IMG/VR virus record: IMGVR_UViG_2531839477_000018
DNA from: a virus
Lineage: Duplodnaviria; Heunggongvirae; Uroviricota; Caudoviricetes
Reading direction: 5' to 3' (one strand)
DNA length: 37,133 nucleotides
Shown here: piece by piece, positions 1 to 37,133 of the stretch
How positions within the stretch are numbered: the first letter of the stretch is position 1
Layout of the letters: every line of letters begins with the position of its first letter
The notes under the pieces: model-generated
What the model was told of the DNA's origin: nothing
The model's input: only the letters and a program-made list of their open reading frames with translations
The model's database searches: none
Program-made: the position numbers and the translations under genes

Positions 1-1002
1 TTACCCTCTATTGTCAAAAGGGTTCAATTCAACAGCAGCCTCTAAATGACCTGGAGCAAAATGCGCATAACGCATAGTCATTTTTATATCGCTATGCCCC
101 AGTATTTTTTGCAACACAAGAATATTTCCGCCCCGCATCATAAAATGACTGGCAAACGTGTGACGTAGCACATGAGTTAATTGCCCATCAGGAAGCTCGA
201 TCTTCGCTCTCTTAATTGCAGCGTCAAAAGCCTCATAACATGGTGAAAATAGCGCTCCTCGTTTTTTGGGAAGCATAGCCTGCAATTGAGGTGAAATCGG
301 TACAGTGCGGTTCTTCTTTCCTTTAGTTTTAACAAATGTGATTCGACCGGGCAGTACTTGAGATTGCTTTAATCCTTCTGCTTCACTCCACCGAGCACCA
401 GTCGCAAGCCCAATACGGACAACAACCCCCAAATCTTTATTCCGTGACTCATCACACGCAATCAGAAGGCGTTCAATCTCATCTACATACAGAAACGCCA
501 GTTCCTTTTCTTCCTCACGAAACTTGCGAATACCAGTCAGGGGGTTTTCACCAGACCACTCCCCAAGGCGCTTCAGTTCGGCAAAAACAGCATGTAGATA
601 TGACTGCTCGCGATTAACGGTTGCTTCACTAAGTTTTTTCTTCCCCTTGGGATTCCACTCTCCTGATAACCTTCTTTCCCGATAAGTGGCAAACATATTT
701 TTGTCAAACTGAGAAGCAAATGGATCTCCCAGCCTGGAACAAATCGCCTCAAGTTTGACTTTGCGCTCTGCACCAGAGGACAAGGTTTTACCGTACATCT
801 CAAACCAACGAGCAATCAACTCAGAAAGACGAGGACCAGAACCATCTTGAAACTCGTCTCCAACTCTACTATTCATTAAACGGCGCTCATAAGAGAGCGC
901 CTCACTTTTTGTCGCAAACTGTTTACGAATGCGTTTTCCCGATGCCCCGTAGGGATAACATTCGCAAAGCCATTTACCTGATGGAATCTTACGAACCGAC
1001 AT
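1..1002 (-). CDS. int: Tyrosine recombinase / phage integrase (P2-like)
   Basis: 333-aa ORF with C-terminal catalytic region typical of tyrosine integrases (..LRHTFASHF.., ..LGHSDIKMTMRYAH..); stop codon is at window position 1-3; first gene of a P2-like gene order. Confidence 0.9.
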   Translation of the reverse strand: MSVRKIPSGKWLCECYPYGASGKRIRKQFATKSEALSYERRLMNSRVGDEFQDGSGPRLSELIARWFEMYGKTLSSGAERKVKLEAICSRLGDPFASQFDKNMFATYRERRLSGEWNPKGKKKLSEATVNREQSYLHAVFAELKRLGEWSGENPLTGIRKFREEEKELAFLYVDEIERLLIACDESRNKDLGVVVRIGLATGARWSEAEGLKQSQVLPGRITFVKTKGKKNRTVPISPQLQAMLPKKRGALFSPCYEAFDAAIKRAKIELPDGQLTHVLRHTFASHFMMRGGNILVLQKILGHSDIKMTMRYAHFAPGHLEAAVELNPFDNRG

Positions 1003-6275: not shown

Positions 6276-9098
6276 ATGACGACAGAGTACATCAGGGACT
6301 GGCAACAACCGCGCCACGCAGTAGGACGTGAAGGAACGGGGATCCCCGCACCTGAATCCGCACTTTCCTCCTGGCTGGATGCCTACCGGGCAGAGAACGA
6401 ACGCCGCCAGGAAATGGCTGATGCGGCGTTCTCCGCCACACCGCTGGGCAACCTGATTAATAAAAGCCTGGACGCACAGGAAAAACAGGACAAAACCATC
6501 ACACTGGCCAGAGAAGCCAGAAAACAGGCACGCGGCGCGGTGGATGAAGCCATGGCCTCGCTGCGCCTGCTGCCATCCTATCTGCGCGATCCGCTTATTC
6601 GCCACCTCTCCTTCCTGCGCAAAAAACAGGAATCTGACCGCCAGAAAGGTAAAAAGAACCAGCAGGCTGAACGCTACGCGCGCGGGACCCTGCGCAAAAT
6701 ATTCGAACGTCTGGACCGCACCGACCACCGCTGGCTGACACCGGGTTATCGCTCCCTTGCCGGACGCGAACGCCTGGATGATTTGCTTTACCTCCCGCAG
6801 CTCAACAAGCACCAGATACAGACGCTGGCCACCATGACGGCGGCGATGTTCAGCAGCACCTTCGAAAAACTCTGCGATGGCTTTGGCGCGACCGATGGCG
6901 AGCTGACCATGGATGTAACGCTGAAGGCGTATCAGATGCTGGCCCGCATGGCGTTACACCTGCACATCATGCCTCCACATTATGACGCACTGACAACAGA
7001 TAAAGACCGGAGGAACGAACCGGACACGGAGCTGCTGCCGGGCGCAATCCTTCGCCTGACCTGTGCGGAATGGTGGAAACGCAAACTGTGGCTGTTACGT
7101 TGCGAGTGGAGAGAAGAACAACTCCGCGCCGCCTGTCTGGTTTCCAGAAAAACATCACCCTATCTGAGCCAGGACGCGTTAAGCGAGTTTCGCGCACAGC
7201 GCGAGAAAACACGCGATTTCCTGAAAAGTTTCATGCTGGAAAATGAAGACGGATTCACGATTGATCTCGAGACAGTGTATTACGCGGGAGTAAGTAACCC
7301 GGTTCACCGTAAGGCAGAAATGATGGCCACCATGAAGGGGCTGGAACTTCTGGCCGAAGCCCGTGGCGACAAAGCGGTGTTTCTGACTGTCACCTGCCCG
7401 TCAAAATACCACGCCACAACAGAGAACGGTCATCCGAATCCCAAATGGAACGGGGCCACCATGCGCGACTCCAGCGATTACCTGGTTAACACGTTTTTTG
7501 CGGCGGTCCGCAAGAAACTGAACCGCGACGGCCTGCGCTGGTATGGCATCCGCACGGTGGAGCCTCACCATGACGGCACCGTGCACTGGCATATGATGGT
7601 CTTTGCTCATCCGGAAGAAATCGACAGCATCGTGGCCATCACCCGCGATATTGCCATTCAGGAAGACCGCCACGAGCTGGGCAATGACATAACTCCGCGC
7701 TTTAAGGCAGAGTACGTCGACGGTTCGAAAGGTACGCCGACCAGCTACATCGCCACCTACATCGGAAAGAACCTGGACAGCCGCGCCGTGGATGGCATTG
7801 ACCCGAAAACAGGCAAGCCACGCGTTGATCACGAAACCGGAAAATCAATGGCCGAGAGCGTGGAACGCGCCATCGGCTGGGCGCGCCTTCACCGCGTCCG
7901 CCAGTTCCAGTTCTTTGGTATCCCCTCCCGTCAGGTATGGCGTGAACTCCGCCGCCTTGCCAGTCAGATGGCCCGCAACCCGGAAGGTCCACAACGTCTG
8001 GAAAATGACGCAATGGATGCGGTACTCGCTGCCGCTGATGCCGGGTGTTTTGCCACCTACATTGAGAAACAGGGTGGCGTACTTGTTCCACGCAAGGATT
8101 ACCTGATTCGCACCGCCTACGACCTCGCAGAAGAGCTGAACGATTACGGCGAGCAAAGCGTACAGATTTACGGGATCTGGTCGCCACAAATCGGGGAATC
8201 TTCCCGCGTGTGCACGCCCCCGGATAACTGGAAGCTGGTAAGACGTAAACCGGAAGCGGAAGACAGCGCCCGCGAAAATGGTTTTGACCTTCAGGGCGGC
8301 CCTGCCGCCCCTTGGACTCGTGGCAATAACTGTCCCCGTGTACAGGAAACGGACAACAACGGGACAGAACAGCCGGAAGAACGGCCAGCACCGTGGCCGC
8401 AGCTCCCTGACGGCGTTGAAGTGAACGAATGGATGCGCTCACTGAAACGGCACGAACGCCGGGCGCTGATGCGTTCGCTTCGTGACAAACAGGCAAAAAA
8501 CAGCAGTGATGAAATGCAGAGCTGGACACAGAGCCGCAAACAGCAGCGGCCTTTGCCTGATAACCACGAATTACTCGCTAAAGAATGGCGGGAGTCTGCT
8601 GAATCTCTCGGCCTGCATATCGGTGAACAGCAGATGCAGCACCTGTTACGGGGCGGCAGTCTGTACGTTGACGGCAGCATCATTGCACCGCAGGGATTTG
8701 AAATTGTACGCAAACCGGATACCCGACCGGACAGCCGGATCACGCAGCTCTGGCAGCGCCTGAGCCGTAACCACGGCGTAAGCAGCACGGAGATCCGCCA
8801 TAACCCGGTCGCCAGCTATCTGGAACTGCTGGGGGCATCAGACCCCGAAGCCGCCGCACGCCTGGCATCCACACTTCAGCAAGACCAGAACACCATGAAA
8901 ACACCCGTTACCGTGCTTTCTGACATGCTGCGCGCCATCCGCGACGCAGAGCACGCACAGAGAATCAGTGAAACCACTGAACGCGCCCACCGCAAAGCAG
9001 ACCTGCTGCAGGGTGGCCTGACCAGTGGAAACAAAAAACAGACAGAAACGGGATTCACAAATCCCGTAAATGAGCAAAAAACGCGCCGCGATATATGA
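6276..9098 (+). CDS. A: Replication initiation protein A (rolling-circle endonuclease, P2 gpA-like)
   Basis: 940-aa ORF; HUH-type metal-binding motif (..GTVHWHMMVFA..); position downstream of early operon as in P2/186. Confidence 0.85.
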   Translation: MTTEYIRDWQQPRHAVGREGTGIPAPESALSSWLDAYRAENERRQEMADAAFSATPLGNLINKSLDAQEKQDKTITLAREARKQARGAVDEAMASLRLLPSYLRDPLIRHLSFLRKKQESDRQKGKKNQQAERYARGTLRKIFERLDRTDHRWLTPGYRSLAGRERLDDLLYLPQLNKHQIQTLATMTAAMFSSTFEKLCDGFGATDGELTMDVTLKAYQMLARMALHLHIMPPHYDALTTDKDRRNEPDTELLPGAILRLTCAEWWKRKLWLLRCEWREEQLRAACLVSRKTSPYLSQDALSEFRAQREKTRDFLKSFMLENEDGFTIDLETVYYAGVSNPVHRKAEMMATMKGLELLAEARGDKAVFLTVTCPSKYHATTENGHPNPKWNGATMRDSSDYLVNTFFAAVRKKLNRDGLRWYGIRTVEPHHDGTVHWHMMVFAHPEEIDSIVAITRDIAIQEDRHELGNDITPRFKAEYVDGSKGTPTSYIATYIGKNLDSRAVDGIDPKTGKPRVDHETGKSMAESVERAIGWARLHRVRQFQFFGIPSRQVWRELRRLASQMARNPEGPQRLENDAMDAVLAAADAGCFATYIEKQGGVLVPRKDYLIRTAYDLAEELNDYGEQSVQIYGIWSPQIGESSRVCTPPDNWKLVRRKPEAEDSARENGFDLQGGPAAPWTRGNNCPRVQETDNNGTEQPEERPAPWPQLPDGVEVNEWMRSLKRHERRALMRSLRDKQAKNSSDEMQSWTQSRKQQRPLPDNHELLAKEWRESAESLGLHIGEQQMQHLLRGGSLYVDGSIIAPQGFEIVRKPDTRPDSRITQLWQRLSRNHGVSSTEIRHNPVASYLELLGASDPEAAARLASTLQQDQNTMKTPVTVLSDMLRAIRDAEHAQRISETTERAHRKADLLQGGLTSGNKKQTETGFTNPVNEQKTRRDI

Positions 9099-9146
9099 AG
9101 CGCGCATAAAACAGGCAAAAACGGGATTTCAGAATCCCGTAAACGG
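9036..9146. repeat. Two copies of a ~30-bp unit with internal palindrome ACGGGATT-N-AATCCCGT (candidate ParR-binding centromere/operator)
   Basis: Copies at about 9036-9075 (inside the 3' end of gene A) and 9109-9146 (intergenic, just upstream of the parM-like gene). Confidence 0.4.
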
Positions 9147-9174
9147 TTAATTAATCAACATAAGGAAAAGCGAC

Positions 9175-10134
9175 ATGAAAATTTGTATCGATGACGGCTC
9201 CACCAACATCAAGCTGGCATGGACTGAGAACGGCGAACGCCGCAACGCCATCAGCCCGAACAGCTTCAAGTCGGAATGGTCTGCGCCGTTCGGTGGCACG
9301 CAGCCCGCGAACTACATGCTTGATGGCGTGCGCTATGGTTTTGATCCTGTCAGCGATCGCTTTGTCCAGACGACCGACACGCAATACCAGTACAGCGATG
9401 TGAATGTCATTGCCATTCATCACGCGCTGGTCAAATCAGGCATCACGCCACAGGCGGTGGATGTGGTTGTCACCCTGCCGCTGAGCGAGTATTTCGACAC
9501 AAACGCCCAGCCGGATATGACCAACATCAACCGCAAAAAAGCGAACGTTATGCGCCCGGTGGAGTACCAGAACGGTGAGGCATTCACTATCCGTAATGTA
9601 CGGGTTATGCCTGAATCCATTCCGGCAGGCTTTAAGGCACTGGCTGACATGAGTCCGTTTGAATCCCTGCTGATTGTGGATTTGGGCGGAACCACGCTGG
9701 ATGTGGCAAAGGTTCAGGGACAACTGGCAGGTATCAGCCAGGTGTTTTGCGATCCACACGTAGGCGTTTCCCTGATGGCCGATGCCGTACTGTCGGTGAT
9801 GGCCACTAACGGTATGCGTACCAGTCACCACATCGCCAATACCATTATCGAACATCGCCATGATGAAGCCTGGCTGCGCCAGCACATCCACAATGACGCG
9901 CATTACGCCAGCCTGATGGCGGTTATTCGTGAAAAGGAAGAAACACTGAAACAACGCGTGATCCGCGCGCTGGCGGGTTTTTCGGGTTACGGGCGGGTGA
10001 TGGTTGTCGGTGGCGGGACGGAGATTGTGGCACCCGCTATCCGCGAAGCCTGCGGAGTTAATGCGACTTTCATCGCGGACGGGGTGCCACAGTTTGCTCT
10101 GGTTAATGGGCTGTACGCAATGGACAAGGAGTAA
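9175..10134 (+). CDS. parM: ParM/StbA-family actin-like segregation ATPase
   Basis: N-terminus MKICIDDGSTNIKLAW matches the ParM/StbA phosphate-1 signature (R1 ParM begins MLVFIDDGSTNIKLQW); later ..DLGGTT.. and ..VVGGG.. ASKHA motifs; 319 aa. Confidence 0.75.
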   Translation: MKICIDDGSTNIKLAWTENGERRNAISPNSFKSEWSAPFGGTQPANYMLDGVRYGFDPVSDRFVQTTDTQYQYSDVNVIAIHHALVKSGITPQAVDVVVTLPLSEYFDTNAQPDMTNINRKKANVMRPVEYQNGEAFTIRNVRVMPESIPAGFKALADMSPFESLLIVDLGGTTLDVAKVQGQLAGISQVFCDPHVGVSLMADAVLSVMATNGMRTSHHIANTIIEHRHDEAWLRQHIHNDAHYASLMAVIREKEETLKQRVIRALAGFSGYGRVMVVGGGTEIVAPAIREACGVNATFIADGVPQFALVNGLYAMDKE

Positions 10135-10138
10135 ACCA

Positions 10139-10450
10139 ATGACGACACCAACCAGACGGATAAGTTTCTATCTGAAGCCCGCCGCCGTCAAGAACGAAGG
10201 CGAAGCATGCGCCTGGCTGGACAGCCTTACACCAGAAGCCCGCAAAAGCGGCCAACGCGTGGCTTTTCTGGCCGGGCTGGCACTTCTGAAAATGAATCCG
10301 GCAGAGGCTTACCGACTGGCTGCATGGGCTGACGATGAAGCGTTATCCCTGACACAAACCAGGACAGAACGCCCCGTGTCACAGCCAGCACCAACCGCAC
10401 AGATAACCAGTCAGATGGCCGGAAATATCCGGGCGTTATTTCCTGAATAA
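10139..10450 (+). CDS. parR: ParR/StbB-like small DNA-binding adaptor
   Basis: 103-aa ORF just downstream of parM with AAGGAG RBS; ISFYLKP..AGLAL..ALFPE resembles R1 ParR (IAFKLNP..AGLAL..SLFPKE) as recalled from memory. Confidence 0.5.
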   Translation: MTTPTRRISFYLKPAAVKNEGEACAWLDSLTPEARKSGQRVAFLAGLALLKMNPAEAYRLAAWADDEALSLTQTRTERPVSQPAPTAQITSQMAGNIRALFPE

Positions 10451-10513
10451 CACAACGTCAGGGCGAGTTCGTCCTGATCTCCACCTCAGAGCATAAACAA
10501 GGAGAACGACATA

Positions 10514-10948
10514 ATGAGCGAAATCAACTATCAGGCATTACGTGAGGCGGCACAAAACTATCAATCGACGCTGGCGTGGTATGAGGCCATCACGGATAAC
10601 CCAAATGCTGAGCAGGATTGTAGCGAAGCAGTGGCGGCGTTTAAGCGTCAAATCCGTCATCAGGAAATGGACATTATCGCCGAGCTACTGGAAGAGCTGG
10701 AAACCAAAGACAACAGGATCGCTGAACTGGAAAAAATCGCCACTGACCATGCACTGAAATTCCAGAAAGCACAGGACGCATTAAAGTATGCCGCTTTGCT
10801 GCATAGCCAGACGGCGCAACAAACAAATAATTTTTCAGTATCGCTTCCGGACATAAGCGAATATTTCATTAATGACGTATTTCAGCACCTGCGATACGAG
10901 CGGGATGTTGAAAGAGCCATCATAAAGGCTGGCGGAAAAGCATTGTGA
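10514..10948 (+). CDS. Hypothetical coiled-coil protein in the A-to-packaging variable region
   Basis: 144-aa ORF with AAGGAG RBS; acidic, helical, no recognisable domain. Confidence 0.5.
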   Translation: MSEINYQALREAAQNYQSTLAWYEAITDNPNAEQDCSEAVAAFKRQIRHQEMDIIAELLEELETKDNRIAELEKIATDHALKFQKAQDALKYAALLHSQTAQQTNNFSVSLPDISEYFINDVFQHLRYERDVERAIIKAGGKAL

Positions 10949-11179
10949 CAGAAGAAACACGAGGACAGAACGCATCAGTCCTGCGATGTAAATCGTGGAT
11001 GGTTTAGCCCACTAACGACAGATAAAAATAACACCTGATCCCCCTCAAACCAGGGCGATAATCGCGCATCGCCCTTCTGCACAATAGCGCACAAATTTGC
11101 ACAATTTTTTTGAACGACTTTTTACCCTTCCGGCCCGCATGACGGCTGGATCCGTCAAGGATCCGTGCGTGCACAAAAA

Positions 11180-11260
11180 AACGCGCTTTTTCTGCGCGCA
11201 GGTGACGGGGGAACAGCCCGCGTTTCAGGGGGTAAATAGCATCCCCTGAACGATGTCGCA
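11180..11260. other. Candidate cos / packaging-site region (inferred)
   Basis: 600-bp non-coding gap before portal gene; GGTGACGGGGGAACAGCCC at about 11201-11219 resembles the P2/186 cohesive end GGCG(A/T)GGCGGGGAAAGCA(C/T) as I recall it (13 of 19); adjacent palindromes CTGCGCGCAG and TCAGGGG..CCCCTGA. Confidence 0.25.
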
Positions 11261-11528
11261 GCGACACAACAGAATGGCTGTATTTCTCACGCTGAGCGTG
11301 AAAAAGACGTGAGGGCTTTTGATTTGACGGGGTGGCAGATAAGGCCGTCAAAATCGCACTGAGGCGGCGAGAACATACAGTCAACGCGGTGGGATTGCGT
11401 AAGAGTCTGACCGTCAATGGTGGCGATAAACTGGAAGGCGTCGTGAAATTATCTGACTGATACAGGAGCTGGAGAGTCGGGGCATAAATTTTTTATGCCC
11501 CGGCGAAGCAGCAGACAAGCGAAGCGCG

Positions 11529-12575
11529 TCAGGATGTGGGCTGGGTGTCTAACAGTGCGTAAGGGTTAAAGCGGATCACCTCTTCGCCAAGCCAGTCATT
11601 GATGTGCTTCATGGCCTCCATGACGGGCATCAGCTCGTTAATTGCGTAAACCCGCGCGGCCTTCTCCACATCACCAAACGCACTTTTTTCGCCCGGCATC
11701 GCCCCCATCAGTTGCGGCGGAACGCGGTGCGCAGCCAGCACATCATCACGGGATGCCGCCTTAACATTCATGAACTCATCCTTTGCGGTGATCTGCTGGA
11801 ACGGCAAAATTTGCACACCTTCTTTGCCCCCGTTGGGCGCATGGATGAGCACGTTTTTAAACGCACCACCACCACGTGCACCCTGTAGCGTTTCTTTCAG
11901 GGAGTCCATGCTTTCGCGGTTTACCTGCGCTGCACCGATGTAGATGATGCACCCGGCATGGGATCCGTTGTCGTAATACAGTTTTCTGAACATGTCCGCC
12001 GAATGAGACAGGCTGGCCGCGAGTAATGCGCCGAGATATTCCGGCATGCCGTAGATTTCCTGGTTAATGTCAGGATTCATCAGGTGGCACACTTTGCCAG
12101 GGCGAAACTGAAACGCATCCTTGCCATCCTGCACATACCACCATGATTCAAGATCGCTTCCGCGTCGCATGTATTTCGCCAGGGCGTGCCGTAATTTAAG
12201 CGGTTCGCCGAGCATATTGCTCCGAAGCTCAAGGAATGCGTTACCGAACACAAACCAGTCCAGCGCCAGCGCCGAGAAATCCTGCCGGGAAAGCAGCGGG
12301 TGCGGAATATAGCAACCGAGCAATACATTGCGCTTAAAGTAAAGCGCAGACTGATGCCAGGACGTTTGCCGGGCAGCTCTTGCCAGACCGTACCAGTCCA
12401 CCGGGGTTTCATACCACCGCCCGTTATCAGCACAGTACATATTGTCCAGCAGGTCATGCCCGGTCAGGCGATAAGGACCATCAAATGTGAATGCACTGAG
12501 CGATGATTCTTTCCTGAGCGCATCAGCAAGATCAATGCGTGAACTCATGCGCACTTTTTTATTTTTTCTGCTCAT
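11529..12575 (-). CDS. Q: Portal protein (P2 gpQ-like)
   Basis: 348-aa ORF, size and position match P2 Q; overlaps start of terminase gene; head-gene synteny. Confidence 0.85.
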   Translation of the reverse strand: MSRKNKKVRMSSRIDLADALRKESSLSAFTFDGPYRLTGHDLLDNMYCADNGRWYETPVDWYGLARAARQTSWHQSALYFKRNVLLGCYIPHPLLSRQDFSALALDWFVFGNAFLELRSNMLGEPLKLRHALAKYMRRGSDLESWWYVQDGKDAFQFRPGKVCHLMNPDINQEIYGMPEYLGALLAASLSHSADMFRKLYYDNGSHAGCIIYIGAAQVNRESMDSLKETLQGARGGGAFKNVLIHAPNGGKEGVQILPFQQITAKDEFMNVKAASRDDVLAAHRVPPQLMGAMPGEKSAFGDVEKAARVYAINELMPVMEAMKHINDWLGEEVIRFNPYALLDTQPTS

Positions 12576-14326
12576 CAGAACTCCATAACCGTGAAACGCT
12601 CGTTTTCTCCTTCGCCGCCAATTGGTTCGTTAATGACAGCAAGCATGGTTGCCCACGCAAGGTCGCCGTGGCTGATCCCCCTCGCGCGGTCCGTTTCGTA
12701 AGTGATAAAGCCGCCCGGTGTTTTCACCTTACGCACGGCGTTAAAGGCCGCGACCAGTTCGCGTTCGGCGCGATCGTATTCCCACCGCCCGGCACGCATT
12801 ATTTGGAGCATTTTCAGTACCAGCGACCGTTTTGATGACAGCGTGAAGGTGTACGGAATAGCTGCAGGGAAAAACCGTTTCACTATCTGATAAACAGCCT
12901 CCCCGTTCCCGCCCGTCACATCAATACCGATGTGTTCCACGTTGTAGCGACACGTGAACTCTTCAATGACTCTGGCCTGTTCTTCAAACTCCAGCCCCTG
13001 AACGCGTCGCGTCTCCACCGTTCGAAAACGGCCACCAGGAACAGCCGGAGGAACAACTACGGACACAGCGCCGCTGTCGCCGTTGCCACTGCTGCCGTTT
13101 GCGTCATACCCAATCCATACCGGACGATTCCCCATCGGGCGGGGAGCAAAAGGTTTCCAGTCTTTCCAGTCGTCGTATCCGTCAACACCGCAGCCAATCA
13201 GGATATTCAGGTTAAATGCCGATTCCCCTTCGCGGACAAACTCACACATATAGAGATTGAGGAACTCGTCTTCGGTGTTTTCATCACGAATTTCGTCGAT
13301 ATCGGTGTGTTTCCAGCCGTGATTAACCACATCTTCCAGCGTGACAATTTGCCGCCACGTCCGGTCAGGGCAGATAAGCCCGTTATGCAGCGTTTTCCAG
13401 TCCACAGAAAAACGCTGGCGTTTATGCGTGGCCTTTTTCTCGTTCCAGCGGTCGCCGTTCCAGTAGGCGTATGCCTCGTGCGTTTCGGTGGATGGCGTGG
13501 AGAAGTAGGTGCGCCGCAGTCCGCTGAGGGTTGCCATAGCGCCAGCCACCTTGCGCAGTTCAGCAAAGCGGCTGACCCAGAAAAATTCATCAAAATAAAA
13601 ATTGCCCGTGTAGGACTGTGCCGACGCAGCAGAAGTGCCGAGAAAATGCAGCTCTGCGCCGTTGGAGAGGATGATTTTATCGCCCCCTTTCAGCTCCACA
13701 TCAACTTCAGATGCAGCCTTCTGAATAATACTTTTAAACTGGAACGCCTGACGACGCGACGCAGACAAAAAAATCTGGTTACGCTGGTAAGGTTGTGCCA
13801 CATCGTCACGCAGCGCCATCAGCAGTGCTTCCTGTGCAAAATACCAGGTCGCCCCAATCTGTCGGGATTTCAGGATCATCCTGTTACGTATCCCGGCTTC
13901 CCTGCAAAGGGTCAGGGAGTCAAACCAGCCCCGCTGATGCCACTCCAGCCTGCTGATGATTTTTTCCCGCAGTGCGGCAATCTGTTCCGGCGTGAAATGA
14001 TTTTTAAGTTTTTTCGCCCGGCTTTTCTTTCCTGTGGCCGTCGCATCCGGCTGGCCATCATGCAGTTTTTTAAGCTGCCGGGTCAGCAGGTCTATTTCCT
14101 TGAAGTCACCACCTGTTTTATTCTGTTTTTCAGTAAGCTGGATGAGGCGCCCATCGATGGACTGCGTGACACGCTGCACGGGTGGCGTTTCATCCCACTG
14201 ATCGCGTTTTTTCCACGCATAAATCGTGTTCGGGTTTATTCCCATCAGACGTGATATTTCTGCGGGCGGATAACCCTGCCAGTAAAGTTGCCGCGCACGC
14301 TGGCGCACAAAAGCGTCCTGAATCAT
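12575..14326 (-). CDS. P: Terminase large (ATPase) subunit (P2 gpP-like)
   Basis: 583-aa ORF divergent from the capsid operon, as P2 P; size matches. Confidence 0.85.
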   Translation of the reverse strand: MIQDAFVRQRARQLYWQGYPPAEISRLMGINPNTIYAWKKRDQWDETPPVQRVTQSIDGRLIQLTEKQNKTGGDFKEIDLLTRQLKKLHDGQPDATATGKKSRAKKLKNHFTPEQIAALREKIISRLEWHQRGWFDSLTLCREAGIRNRMILKSRQIGATWYFAQEALLMALRDDVAQPYQRNQIFLSASRRQAFQFKSIIQKAASEVDVELKGGDKIILSNGAELHFLGTSAASAQSYTGNFYFDEFFWVSRFAELRKVAGAMATLSGLRRTYFSTPSTETHEAYAYWNGDRWNEKKATHKRQRFSVDWKTLHNGLICPDRTWRQIVTLEDVVNHGWKHTDIDEIRDENTEDEFLNLYMCEFVREGESAFNLNILIGCGVDGYDDWKDWKPFAPRPMGNRPVWIGYDANGSSGNGDSGAVSVVVPPAVPGGRFRTVETRRVQGLEFEEQARVIEEFTCRYNVEHIGIDVTGGNGEAVYQIVKRFFPAAIPYTFTLSSKRSLVLKMLQIMRAGRWEYDRAERELVAAFNAVRKVKTPGGFITYETDRARGISHGDLAWATMLAVINEPIGGEGENERFTVMEF

Positions 14327-34528: not shown

Positions 34529-34789
34529 ATGTTCCGTTGTCCGCTTTGTGGCGCATCTGCCCGTATCCGCACCAGTCGTCCGGAAAATGATTCAAACACC
34601 GTGCGGCAAAAGTATTACCAGTGTAACAACCTGGAATGCGGCGTATGCTTCTCAACACTGGAAGCTTTCCATAAATTCACATCGAAACACGCCTCCGGCG
34701 TTCACTCATCAGAAGGTATCCCGTGGCATGAGCTGCCAGCTTCACACAGGGGAAACAATCAGATGAGTTTGCCTTTACCTCAGAATTAA
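34529..34789 (+). CDS. ogr: Late gene transcriptional activator, Ogr/Delta zinc-finger family
   Basis: MFRCPLCGASARIRTSR...YYQCNNLECGVCFST matches the P2 Ogr pattern MFHCPLC....RTSR...YHQC.N..C...F (four Cys zinc finger); last phage gene. Confidence 0.85.
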   Translation: MFRCPLCGASARIRTSRPENDSNTVRQKYYQCNNLECGVCFSTLEAFHKFTSKHASGVHSSEGIPWHELPASHRGNNQMSLPLPQN

Positions 34790-34978: not shown

Positions 34979-35119
34979 ATGTCGCAAAAATCGCTTACGG
35001 CCATCACGTTCTGCGTGACGGTAATCCTCATCATCTGGATGCTGCACGGTTCGCTGTGTGAAATACGGATGAGCTTCTGGGGAGCGGAGTTTGCGGCGTT
35101 CTTACAGTGTAAGCAGTAA
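34979..35119 (+). CDS. Hok/Gef-family small membrane toxin (46 aa), not in the ORF track
   Basis: MSQKSLTAITFCVTVILIIWMLHGSLCEIRMSFWGAEFAAFLQCKQ: N-terminal TM helix and C-terminal LCEIR...AAFL signature of Hok/Gef; AAGGAG RBS 8 nt upstream; structured leader and hairpins around it. Confidence 0.65.
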   Translation: MSQKSLTAITFCVTVILIIWMLHGSLCEIRMSFWGAEFAAFLQCKQ

Positions 35120-36130: not shown

Positions 36131-36217
36131 TGGTACCCGGAGCGGGACTTGAACCCGCACAGCGCGAACGCCGAGGGATTTTAAATCCCTTGTGTCTACC
36201 GATTCCACCATCCGGGC
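36131..36217 (-). tRNA. leuZ: tRNA-Leu (anticodon UAA)
   Basis: Reverse complement reads GCCCGGATGGTGGAATCGGTAGACACAAGGGATTTAAAATCCCTCGGCGTTCGCGCTGTGCGGGTTCAAGTCCCGCTCCGGGTACCA, 87 nt with CCA end. Confidence 0.95.
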
Positions 36218-36229
36218 TCGGGAAGAAAG

Positions 36230-36303
36230 TGGAGGCGCGTTCCGGAGTCGAACCGGACTAGACGGATTTGCAATCCGCTACATAACCGCTTTGTTAACGC
36301 GCC
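36230..36303 (-). tRNA. cysT: tRNA-Cys (anticodon GCA)
   Basis: Reverse complement reads GGCGCGTTAACAAAGCGGTTATGTAGCGGATTGCAAATCCGTCTAGTCCGGTTCGACTCCGGAACGCGCCTCCA, 74 nt. Confidence 0.95.
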
Positions 36304-36357
36304 AAATTCTTCAGGCCTTTCAGCCAGACATCCGCTTGAGGCCGATGTCTTTTAAAC

Positions 36358-36433
<76 letters not shown>

Positions 36434-36584: not shown

Positions 36585-37133
36585 TCACTGATCAAGCAAA
36601 TCTGCACGCGCAGCGCTCAAATATTGCAACATTGACCACAGAGTCAGTACCGCAGCCACAAAGAAAAGTGCAATACCGGCGTACTCAACCCAAATGTTCG
36701 GACGCCACAGCAGCCAGGCCAACGCCACCATCTGGGCAGTGGTTTTCACTTTCCCAATCCAGGAGACAGCCACGCTACTGCGTTTACCCAACTCCGCCAT
36801 CCATTCGCGTAGCGCAGAAATAATAATTTCACGGGCGATCATCGTTGCCGCCGGTAGGGTCACCCACCAGCTGTGATAATGCTCGGTTACCAGCACCATG
36901 GCGATAGCCACGAGAACTTTATCTGCTACAGGGTCAAGGAAAGCACCAAACCGGGTACTCTGGTTCCAGCGGCGTGCCAGAAAACCATCGAACCAGTCAG
37001 TCACCGCCGCGACGCAGAAAATGAGCGCGGCGGCAAACGGCGACCAGGTGACAGGCAGATAAAAGACCAATACAAAGAATGGGATAAGGATGACACGGAA
37101 CAGTGTAAGCAACGTAGGGATATTAAATTGCAT
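36585..37133 (-). CDS. pgsA: CDP-diacylglycerol--glycerol-3-phosphate 3-phosphatidyltransferase
   Basis: 182-aa [30 protein letters not shown].. with the CDP-alcohol phosphotransferase motif D-G-x2-A-R...D-x3-D (..[19 protein letters not shown]..); conserved E. coli neighbourhood pgsA-glyW-cysT-leuZ; start is the last codon of the window. Confidence 0.95.

Follow-up and report, generated by a model that had tools for sequence, protein, structure and literature searches.

A type II partition cassette, lineage-fixed in P88-like prophages, as a candidate segregation system for extrachromosomal phage DNA

The sequence presented here, a 37,133-nucleotide stretch of Caudoviricetes DNA (IMG/VR record IMGVR_UViG_2531839477_000018, referred to throughout as the window), holds a P88-like (Xuanwuvirus) prophage of the P2 family integrated at a tRNA-Leu/Cys/Gly-pgsA site, and between its replication gene A and its packaging genes lies a cassette of two genes, parM and parR, preceded by a pair of palindromic repeats. 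Our analysis suggests, with confidence that is evenly balanced, that this is a genuine type II (ParM/ParR/parC-like) segregation cassette that serves to segregate or position circular phage DNA during its extrachromosomal phase. Both the cassette and the hypothesis that it serves plasmid maintenance are already known from genome annotation and from Rousset et al. 2022. What our work contributes is therefore not a discovery but a set of constraints on function, namely that the cassette is fixed within one phage lineage, is probably expressed from the early operon, is associated with a minimal palindromic site and carries mosaic alleles of ParR.

The ParM protein

The 319-aa open reading frame (ORF) at 9175-10134, which begins MKICIDDGSTNIKLAW, had been singled out in the original prediction for a ParM/StbA signature at its N-terminus, and the profile search proposed there for both proteins of the cassette gave matches to the ParM/StbA family for this protein and to the ParR family for its partner. 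For ParM, the Pfam StbA_N domain (1e-81) and the ParM C-terminal domain (5.6e-68) are both matched end to end, ParM of plasmid R1 (PDB 1mwk and others) aligns at 2e-91 over residues 2-316 of the phage protein, and the match to PHROG 691, a 'partition protein' family, reaches 5e-89. The phosphate-binding and catalytic motifs DDGSTNIK, MPESIPAG (E148) and DLGGTTLD (D170) are conserved. All 86 of the 86 parM ORFs compared are intact at 319 aa, and a mean dN/dS of ~0.05, with dS up to 0.24, indicates that the gene is under strong purifying selection. Judged by its sequence, ParM is thus a full-length, selectively maintained actin-fold ATPase with intact nucleotide-binding motifs. Plasmid-borne ParM proteins are about 46-52% identical to it, with none found between 60% and 95%, and because even the nearest reaches at most 51.7% the cassette is not a recent import from a plasmid.

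The ParR adaptor

The start codon of parR lies 4 nt past the parM stop codon and 9 nt past an AAGGAG motif at 10124-10129, an arrangement by which parR is predicted to be translationally coupled to parM, and the 103-aa ParR-like partner with its coupled ribosome-binding site was in this respect described correctly from the start. Pfam assigns the protein to PF10784 (Plasmid_stab_B; 2.2e-24, with a score above the 25-bit cut-off), and a match to the 'partition protein' family PHROG 2515, at 3.4e-58, spans its whole length. A profile built from 22 phage ParR homologues finds ParR/StbB of pB171 (2JD3) as its top PDB match, at E=0.0014 and within the N-terminal domain. Since StbB of phage D6 and the ParR proteins of two IncF plasmids, whose genes follow parM there, also match PF10784, and since the profile retrieves 2JD3, we regard PF10784 as the family of plasmid ParR proteins. 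Taken together, the family assignments of ParM and ParR are strongly supported by these profile matches.

The alignment of phage ParR proteins opens with an invariant N-terminal RRISFYLKP segment followed by helices, passes through a hypervariable linker at ~residues 65-95 and closes with an invariant NI(R/Q)x(L/F)FP motif (NIRALFPE here) that is conserved across all ParR alleles and resembles the NIKNLFPDDE of IncF ParR. In R1 and pB171, ParR is built from an N-terminal domain that binds DNA, in type II systems of the ribbon-helix-helix kind, then a flexible linker, and lastly a tail that contacts ParM. By its alignment the phage protein belongs to the ParR/StbB family of plasmids and shows the same three-part build, with NIRALFPE as a putative ParM-binding peptide at its tail. 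An AlphaFold2 (AF2) monomer model computed from a 22-sequence alignment (pLDDT 54) places helices at residues 20-29, 32-35, 38-52, 54-61 and 89-100, the C-terminal motif being predicted as helical; the model was too poor for a fold search, and the assignment was made through the Pfam and PDB profile matches instead.

Among the same 86 loci, 83 parR ORFs have the expected length of 102-104 aa, and some of the three short ones may have been cut by contig ends. The proteins fall into two mosaic allele types, A and B, that are ~52-58% identical to each other, a split seen in loci that include L009, L020, L028, L036 and L048. The two types diverge after residue ~17, through the second half of the DNA-binding domain, the linker and, slightly, the tail, which reads NIRALFPE in one type and NIQAFFPE/K in the other. 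Each type occurs with the same ParM (98-99% identical) and the same palindromes, and the invariance of RRISFYLKP, the putative DNA-reading strand, would be consistent with an unchanged site. No plasmid ParR was detected by tblastn at E<=1e-3 outside P88-like insertions, and a scan of GTDB species representatives returned four ParR loci only, which left no distant relatives for covariation analysis. Near-identical P88-like parR genes also occur in two assemblies labelled as Firmicutes, a contig of Vagococcus sp. WN89Y (L006, 97%) and a 229-bp contig of Fredinandcohnia humi (L008, 90%), and these are most likely enterobacterial contamination of the assemblies.

The palindromic repeats

Directly upstream of parM, at 9048-9067 and 9121-9140, are two perfect 20-bp palindromes of the form ACGGGATT-N4-AATCCCGT. 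Around each palindrome extends a 39-nt direct-repeat unit, and the two units, 82% identical, start 73 bp apart, or ~7 helical turns. Allowing up to three mismatches (<=3), the palindrome pattern occurs at these two places only in the window, where 0.08 occurrences would be expected by chance. Their position immediately 5' of parM is the canonical position of a par site, and both are kept there in relatives from Salmonella, E. albertii and IMG/VR loci, with either type of ParR allele. The earlier description of two palindromic repeats that look like a centromere or operator therefore holds as to their presence and placement, while the parC role itself stays putative, if plausible. One copy had been said to reach into the 3' end of gene A and is more exactly described as lying wholly inside it, since gene A stops at 9098.

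Variants of the palindromes among relatives show no clear strand bias, and the comparison favours neither protein binding nor an RNA hairpin. In three loci (L037, L049 and L036) parallel substitutions are found in both palindrome copies of a single genome, the same-genome changes being ACAGGATT in both copies, AAAACCCGT together with AAAACCCCGT, and GGGGTT together with AACCCC. These parallel changes suggest concerted evolution of the two sites and would be consistent either with two sites read by one protein or with gene conversion.

Distribution and lineage

The cassette is present in 1308 of 5426 complete E. coli genomes (~24%), in which its cognate gene A is found in 1328-1576, and IMG/VR contains 249 stretches that encode it. 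Over 1.5 kb it is 94.6-98.6% identical to 14 phage records that include Escherichia phage P88, Xuanwuvirus P884B11 and Citrobacter phage phiSM (96.5-98.6% for these three), of which most of the annotated ones label the products as ParM or a partition protein, with a few calling them hypothetical or a 'recombinase' and two records unannotated. It is 100% identical to chromosomal prophages of E. coli, in which the RefSeq annotation made by PGAP names the products 'plasmid segregation protein ParM' and 'plasmid partitioning/stability family protein'. A survey of the gpA-gpQ interval reports that roughly one P2-like phage in four has a putative partitioning system, lists 'StbA + Plasmid_stab_B' arrangements in its Table S5A and suggests plasmid maintenance as their role (Rousset et al. 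2022). The view that a type II partition system is unexpected in a P2-like phage is not supported by these observations. The prediction was moreover to count as refuted if the cassette turned out to be a common, annotated component of this phage group with a known role other than partition; this holds in part, the cassette being common and annotated, and no non-partition role is known for it.

Gene order and near-identical DNA place the prophage in Xuanwuvirus, the P88-like Peduoviridae, and its gpA is 96-97% identical to those of P88-like relatives. A gpA of P88 type (>80% identity) is encoded by 14 of 382 gpA-bearing phage records; ParM is found in the same 14 and in none of the 368 others. 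In the 57 loci that extend as far as the portal gene, parMR is constant, whereas the distance from the parR stop to that gene falls into at least 39 length classes between 986 and 3069 bp; the variable hotspot of these phages therefore starts after parR. On this distribution the cassette is a lineage-fixed backbone element of P88-like phages and not swappable hotspot cargo. Its assignment to the gpA-gpQ cargo and defence hotspot was thus correct for the interval and incorrect for the cassette, which is not itself variable cargo.

In the window the variable stretch occupies 10451-11528 and consists of an Ead/Ea22-like gene and ~580 bp without a convincing ORF, the latter of which, by P2 gene order, we presume to hold cos. 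A prophage with a 100% identical cassette is integrated elsewhere, between pdxB and flk, and differs in its immunity region, so that the cassette travels across different integration and immunity modules. The record NC_049344.1 ('Escherichia phage 520873', L091), which serves as an ICTV species exemplar, is a linear prophage excerpt with a fragment of host yecA; its integrase, gpA and tape-measure genes are split and its tail sheath gene carries IS100, and its parM and parR are intact.

Transcriptional context and the gpA extension

A simple consensus scan of 8800-9175 turned up no sigma-70-like promoter, nor was a plus-strand terminator found between gene A and parM. On these grounds parMR probably forms the distal part of the early (replication) operon, co-transcribed with gene A from the early promoter. 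The gene A product itself carries at residues ~800-940 (~8680-9098) a C-terminal extension of ~140 aa that is seen only in the P88-like lineage, other gpA proteins of the P2 family aligning only to ~residue 796-856. Palindrome 1 falls within the part of the gene that encodes this extension, and the extension co-occurs with parMR. A functional link between gpA and the partition module is conceivable.

Prophage layout

The features of the window are collected in Table 1. The cassette is followed by P2-type packaging, head, lysis and tail genes, identified from the ORFs of the window and the annotation of a related prophage, and the right end of the window is host DNA, as the tRNA genes and the pgsA-like gene show. 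With the Hok/Gef-family toxin gene near that end, the phage holds homologues of both classical stability loci of plasmid R1, parMRC and the post-segregational killing system of hok/sok type; a Hok/Mok-like gene after ogr is also found in a related circular record (L002) and in 'Escherichia phage 520873'. A perfect hairpin, CGGGGCATAAA-TTTTTT-ATGCCCCG, lies at 11477-11503, just past the stop of the portal gene (11529), and together with the terminator-like hairpin listed in the table it probably terminates the leftward packaging operon. An Rfam scan of 8500-12000 gave a single sub-threshold chance match and nothing else.

Table 1. Positions of the cassette, its repeat units and other features in the window
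Feature	Position	Strand	Basis or remark
Tyrosine integrase, intact	1-1002	-	
Early rightward gene block	ends with gene A	+	
Gene A, P2-type replication initiator, 940 aa	6276-9098	+	PF05840, 9e-132
Repeat unit 1 of parC-like site	9032-9070	.	A-rich leader and palindrome ACGGGATTcacaAATCCCGT (9048-9067), within gene A coding sequence
Repeat unit 2 of parC-like site	9105-9143	.	palindrome ACGGGATTtcagAATCCCGT (9121-9140), in 76-nt A-parM spacer
parM, 319 aa	9175-10134	+	Pfam StbA_N and ParM C-terminal domain
parR (StbB-type adaptor), 103 aa	10139-10450	+	PF10784
Ead/Ea22-like gene	10514-10948		PF13935, 8.5e-16
Terminator-like hairpin	11181-11199	-	
Portal and terminase genes	11529-14326	-	ORFs; annotated in related prophage
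ogr	34529-34789		
Hok/Gef-family toxin gene	34979-35119	+	PF01848, 3.7e-07
Host tRNA-Leu(taa), tRNA-Cys and tRNA-Gly genes	36131-36433		
CDP-alcohol phosphatidyltransferase gene (pgsA-like), host DNA	36585-37133		

Discussion

The conservation of ParM and ParR, the placement of the palindromes and the probable position of parMR in the early operon provide a framework for considering how a partition system might serve an integrative phage. If the cassette acts in segregation, parMR would be made after infection or induction and not under immunity in the lysogen, and ParR dimers would occupy both palindromic units at the junction of gene A and parM. With its C-terminal NIRALFPE helix, ParR would then capture growing ParM filaments, which would push ParR-bound circular phage genomes apart. 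Replication of P2 by gpA produces monomeric circles that are also the substrate for packaging, and such gpA-made circles would be the plasmid-like cargo of the ParM machine. The likely benefit to the phage would lie in the spatial spreading and inheritance of its extrachromosomal circles, both during replication and before integration or packaging. More specifically, and with confidence a little under even, we propose a phage cytoskeleton encoded in the early replication operon that either separates and positions the monomers arising from gpA rolling-circle replication or carries the genome through cell divisions as a transient plasmid until integration.

Several observations weigh against a segregation role. 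Within the palindromes a core CGGGA...TCC(C/T)G is near-invariant, and the arms are imperfect, with one or two mismatches, in most relatives; a comparison of 71 distinct relatives, with a divergence of only ~3%, shows no higher conservation in the arms than in the DNA on either side. The site consists of only two palindromes, or four half-sites, compared with the many direct iterons of R1-type parC loci and of the upstream regions of D6 and IncF plasmids, and a ring-like ParR/parC complex might not form on so small an array. No coevolution was found between the ParR allele type and either ParM residues or palindrome variants. The promoter scan, as a simple consensus match, could have missed a weak or non-sigma-70 promoter, and our literature search on ParM of P88 or P2-like phages found no functional study.

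The most serious competing explanation, which we hold to be somewhat unlikely, is that P88-like phages are facultative plasmid prophages that can persist as low-copy plasmids without integration, for example where attB is absent or occupied (Rousset et al. 2022). Such a lifestyle would account for a complete set of partition genes and for the presence in the same prophage of a Hok/Gef toxin of the post-segregational-killing type (34979-35119), and it has precedent in the P1-like plasmid prophage D6, which uses a homologous StbA/StbB pair with a ParM 47% identical to the one described here. A complete, circular 34.5-kb P88-like genome has moreover been filed as plasmid pZ1323PEC0009-2, although this record may represent merely the excised form, and the contiguous attP junction of the circular record was found in 0 of 442 genomes in a search that is blind to circular records opened at the junction. 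Type II (ParMRC) systems have an extrachromosomal low-copy carrier, whereas 1454 of the 1456 cassette copies in complete E. coli genomes are chromosomal and the window itself is integrated at tRNA-Leu, with its integrase intact. Plasmid prophages also need par expression under immunity, and no autonomous parMR promoter was found; nor was a plasmid-type copy-controlled replicon seen, the sole replication initiator being the gpA of the early operon. 'Escherichia phage 520873' was considered as evidence for an episome and rejected, as it is an excerpt of an integrated, decayed prophage.

A second explanation, unlikely in our view, concerns the palindromes and not the proteins. The repeats would here be no centromere at all, acting instead as structures in the mRNA or as leftward (minus-strand) intrinsic terminators that protect gene A against antisense transcription, with ParR binding elsewhere or serving only as a regulator. 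Both palindromes do score as terminator-like on the minus strand, where an 8-bp stem is followed by a T-run, hairpins of about -10 to -11 kcal/mol are predicted on either strand, and several variants keep their pairing on the plus strand only as G-U, for example GCGGGATT...AATCCTGT, while other variants break plus-strand pairing and no strand bias is evident. The terminator interpretation is nonetheless the less likely one, because the portal operon, which runs leftward, has a better terminator ~2 kb before the palindromes, at 11181-11199, because one of the hairpins falls inside the coding sequence of gene A, and because the palindromes belong to tandem 39-nt units, 73 bp apart and directly upstream of parM like known par sites. 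The parallel changes in both copies described above (L037, L049 and L036) also fit one protein reading two sites, or gene conversion.

We consider it improbable that the cassette provides the lysogen with an accessory function, be it anti-phage defence, exclusion of or incompatibility with plasmids, or an effect on chromosome segregation. The gpA-gpQ interval is a documented hotspot for defence and other cargo, and the Citrobacter rodentium authors listed the cassette as a possible 'fitness' gene. Neither ParM nor ParR has a PADLOC match, however, which leaves the exclusion or defence role once proposed for the cassette without support; no promoter for expression in the lysogen was found, and fixation in one phage lineage is unlike the shuffled cargo of the hotspot. 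Cross-talk with resident plasmids is also unlikely, given the low identity of plasmid ParM proteins (at most 51.7%) and the absence of any plasmid ParR detected by tblastn outside P88-like insertions. Finally, that the cassette is a decaying relic of plasmid-phage recombination without present function is scarcely credible: an integrated element has no obvious use for such a system, and yet all 86 parM genes are full length and 83 of 86 parR genes are of expected length, the ATPase motifs are conserved, the selection data (parM dN/dS ~0.05, dS up to 0.24) contradict decay, and the distance to the nearest plasmid ParM argues against a recent import.

A segregation role for this cassette, if true, would be the first demonstrated case of type II plasmid segregation machinery serving the life cycle of a Gram-negative phage that integrates, and its centromere would be a minimal one, made of two palindromes of which one is embedded in a replication gene. 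With P88-like prophages that carry the cassette in about a quarter of complete E. coli genomes, this is a widespread, conserved and strongly selected actin-like system. Should it organise replicating phage circles, the phage-cytoskeleton idea developed for AlpAC of the Corynebacterium glutamicum prophage CGP3 would extend to a major enterobacterial phage family, and should it support a plasmid state, the line between integrative phages and phage-plasmids would blur.

Comparison with known systems

The cassette occupies the same interval as the cargo of the P2 gpA-gpQ hotspot, which includes old, tin, retrons and others (Rousset et al. 2022). That cargo varies, whereas the cassette is constant within one lineage (14 of 14 P88-like records and 0 of 368 other gpA-bearing phages), has no match to a defence family by PADLOC, and is followed by the cargo proper, which begins after parR.

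Among plasmid systems the closest resemblance is to ParMRC of R1/NR1 (the parA/stb locus), with which the cassette shares full-length ParM homology (2e-91 to 1mwk), conserved nucleotide-binding motifs, a small, translationally coupled parR downstream and a repeated DNA site directly upstream of parM. The R1/NR1 system resides on a plasmid and the phage cassette on an integrative P2-family phage. R1 parC is made up of ten 11-bp direct iterons around its promoter, in contrast to the two 20-bp palindromes of the phage; the promoter within R1 parC is autoregulated, while none was detected at the phage site, one repeat of which lies inside the upstream gene. ParR of pB171 par1 (StbB, 2JD3) and the 'plasmid partitioning/stability family' proteins of IncF plasmids belong to the same Pfam family, PF10784, and the IncF ParR has a similar C-terminal N-I-x-x-L-F-P, although these plasmid ParR proteins are 112-140 aa long compared with 103 aa in the phage and pairwise identity is only ~20%.

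Outside the P88-like group, a close ParM (47% identity) is encoded by just one deposited phage, Escherichia phage D6, whose annotators noted the similarity of its StbA to that of P88. D6 is a true plasmid prophage, and its upstream region has multiple direct repeats of TTCTCAA type and no palindromes, where the P88-like cassette has palindromes. The closest functional model, by analogy, is the AlpC/AlpA/alpS system of the C. glutamicum prophage CGP3, in which an integrated prophage pairs an actin-like filament protein with a DNA-binding adaptor whose binding sites precede the operon itself (Donovan et al. 2015, PMC4446434). AlpC belongs to a distant actin-like family in a Gram-positive host, with another gene order and another adaptor family, and the two filament proteins are compared here at the level of shared fold class. 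In CGP3 both genes are switched on early, and efficient replication of the phage circle after excision depends on them (PMC4446434); a comparable role on circular DNA is what we tentatively propose for ParM and ParR of the P88-like phages.

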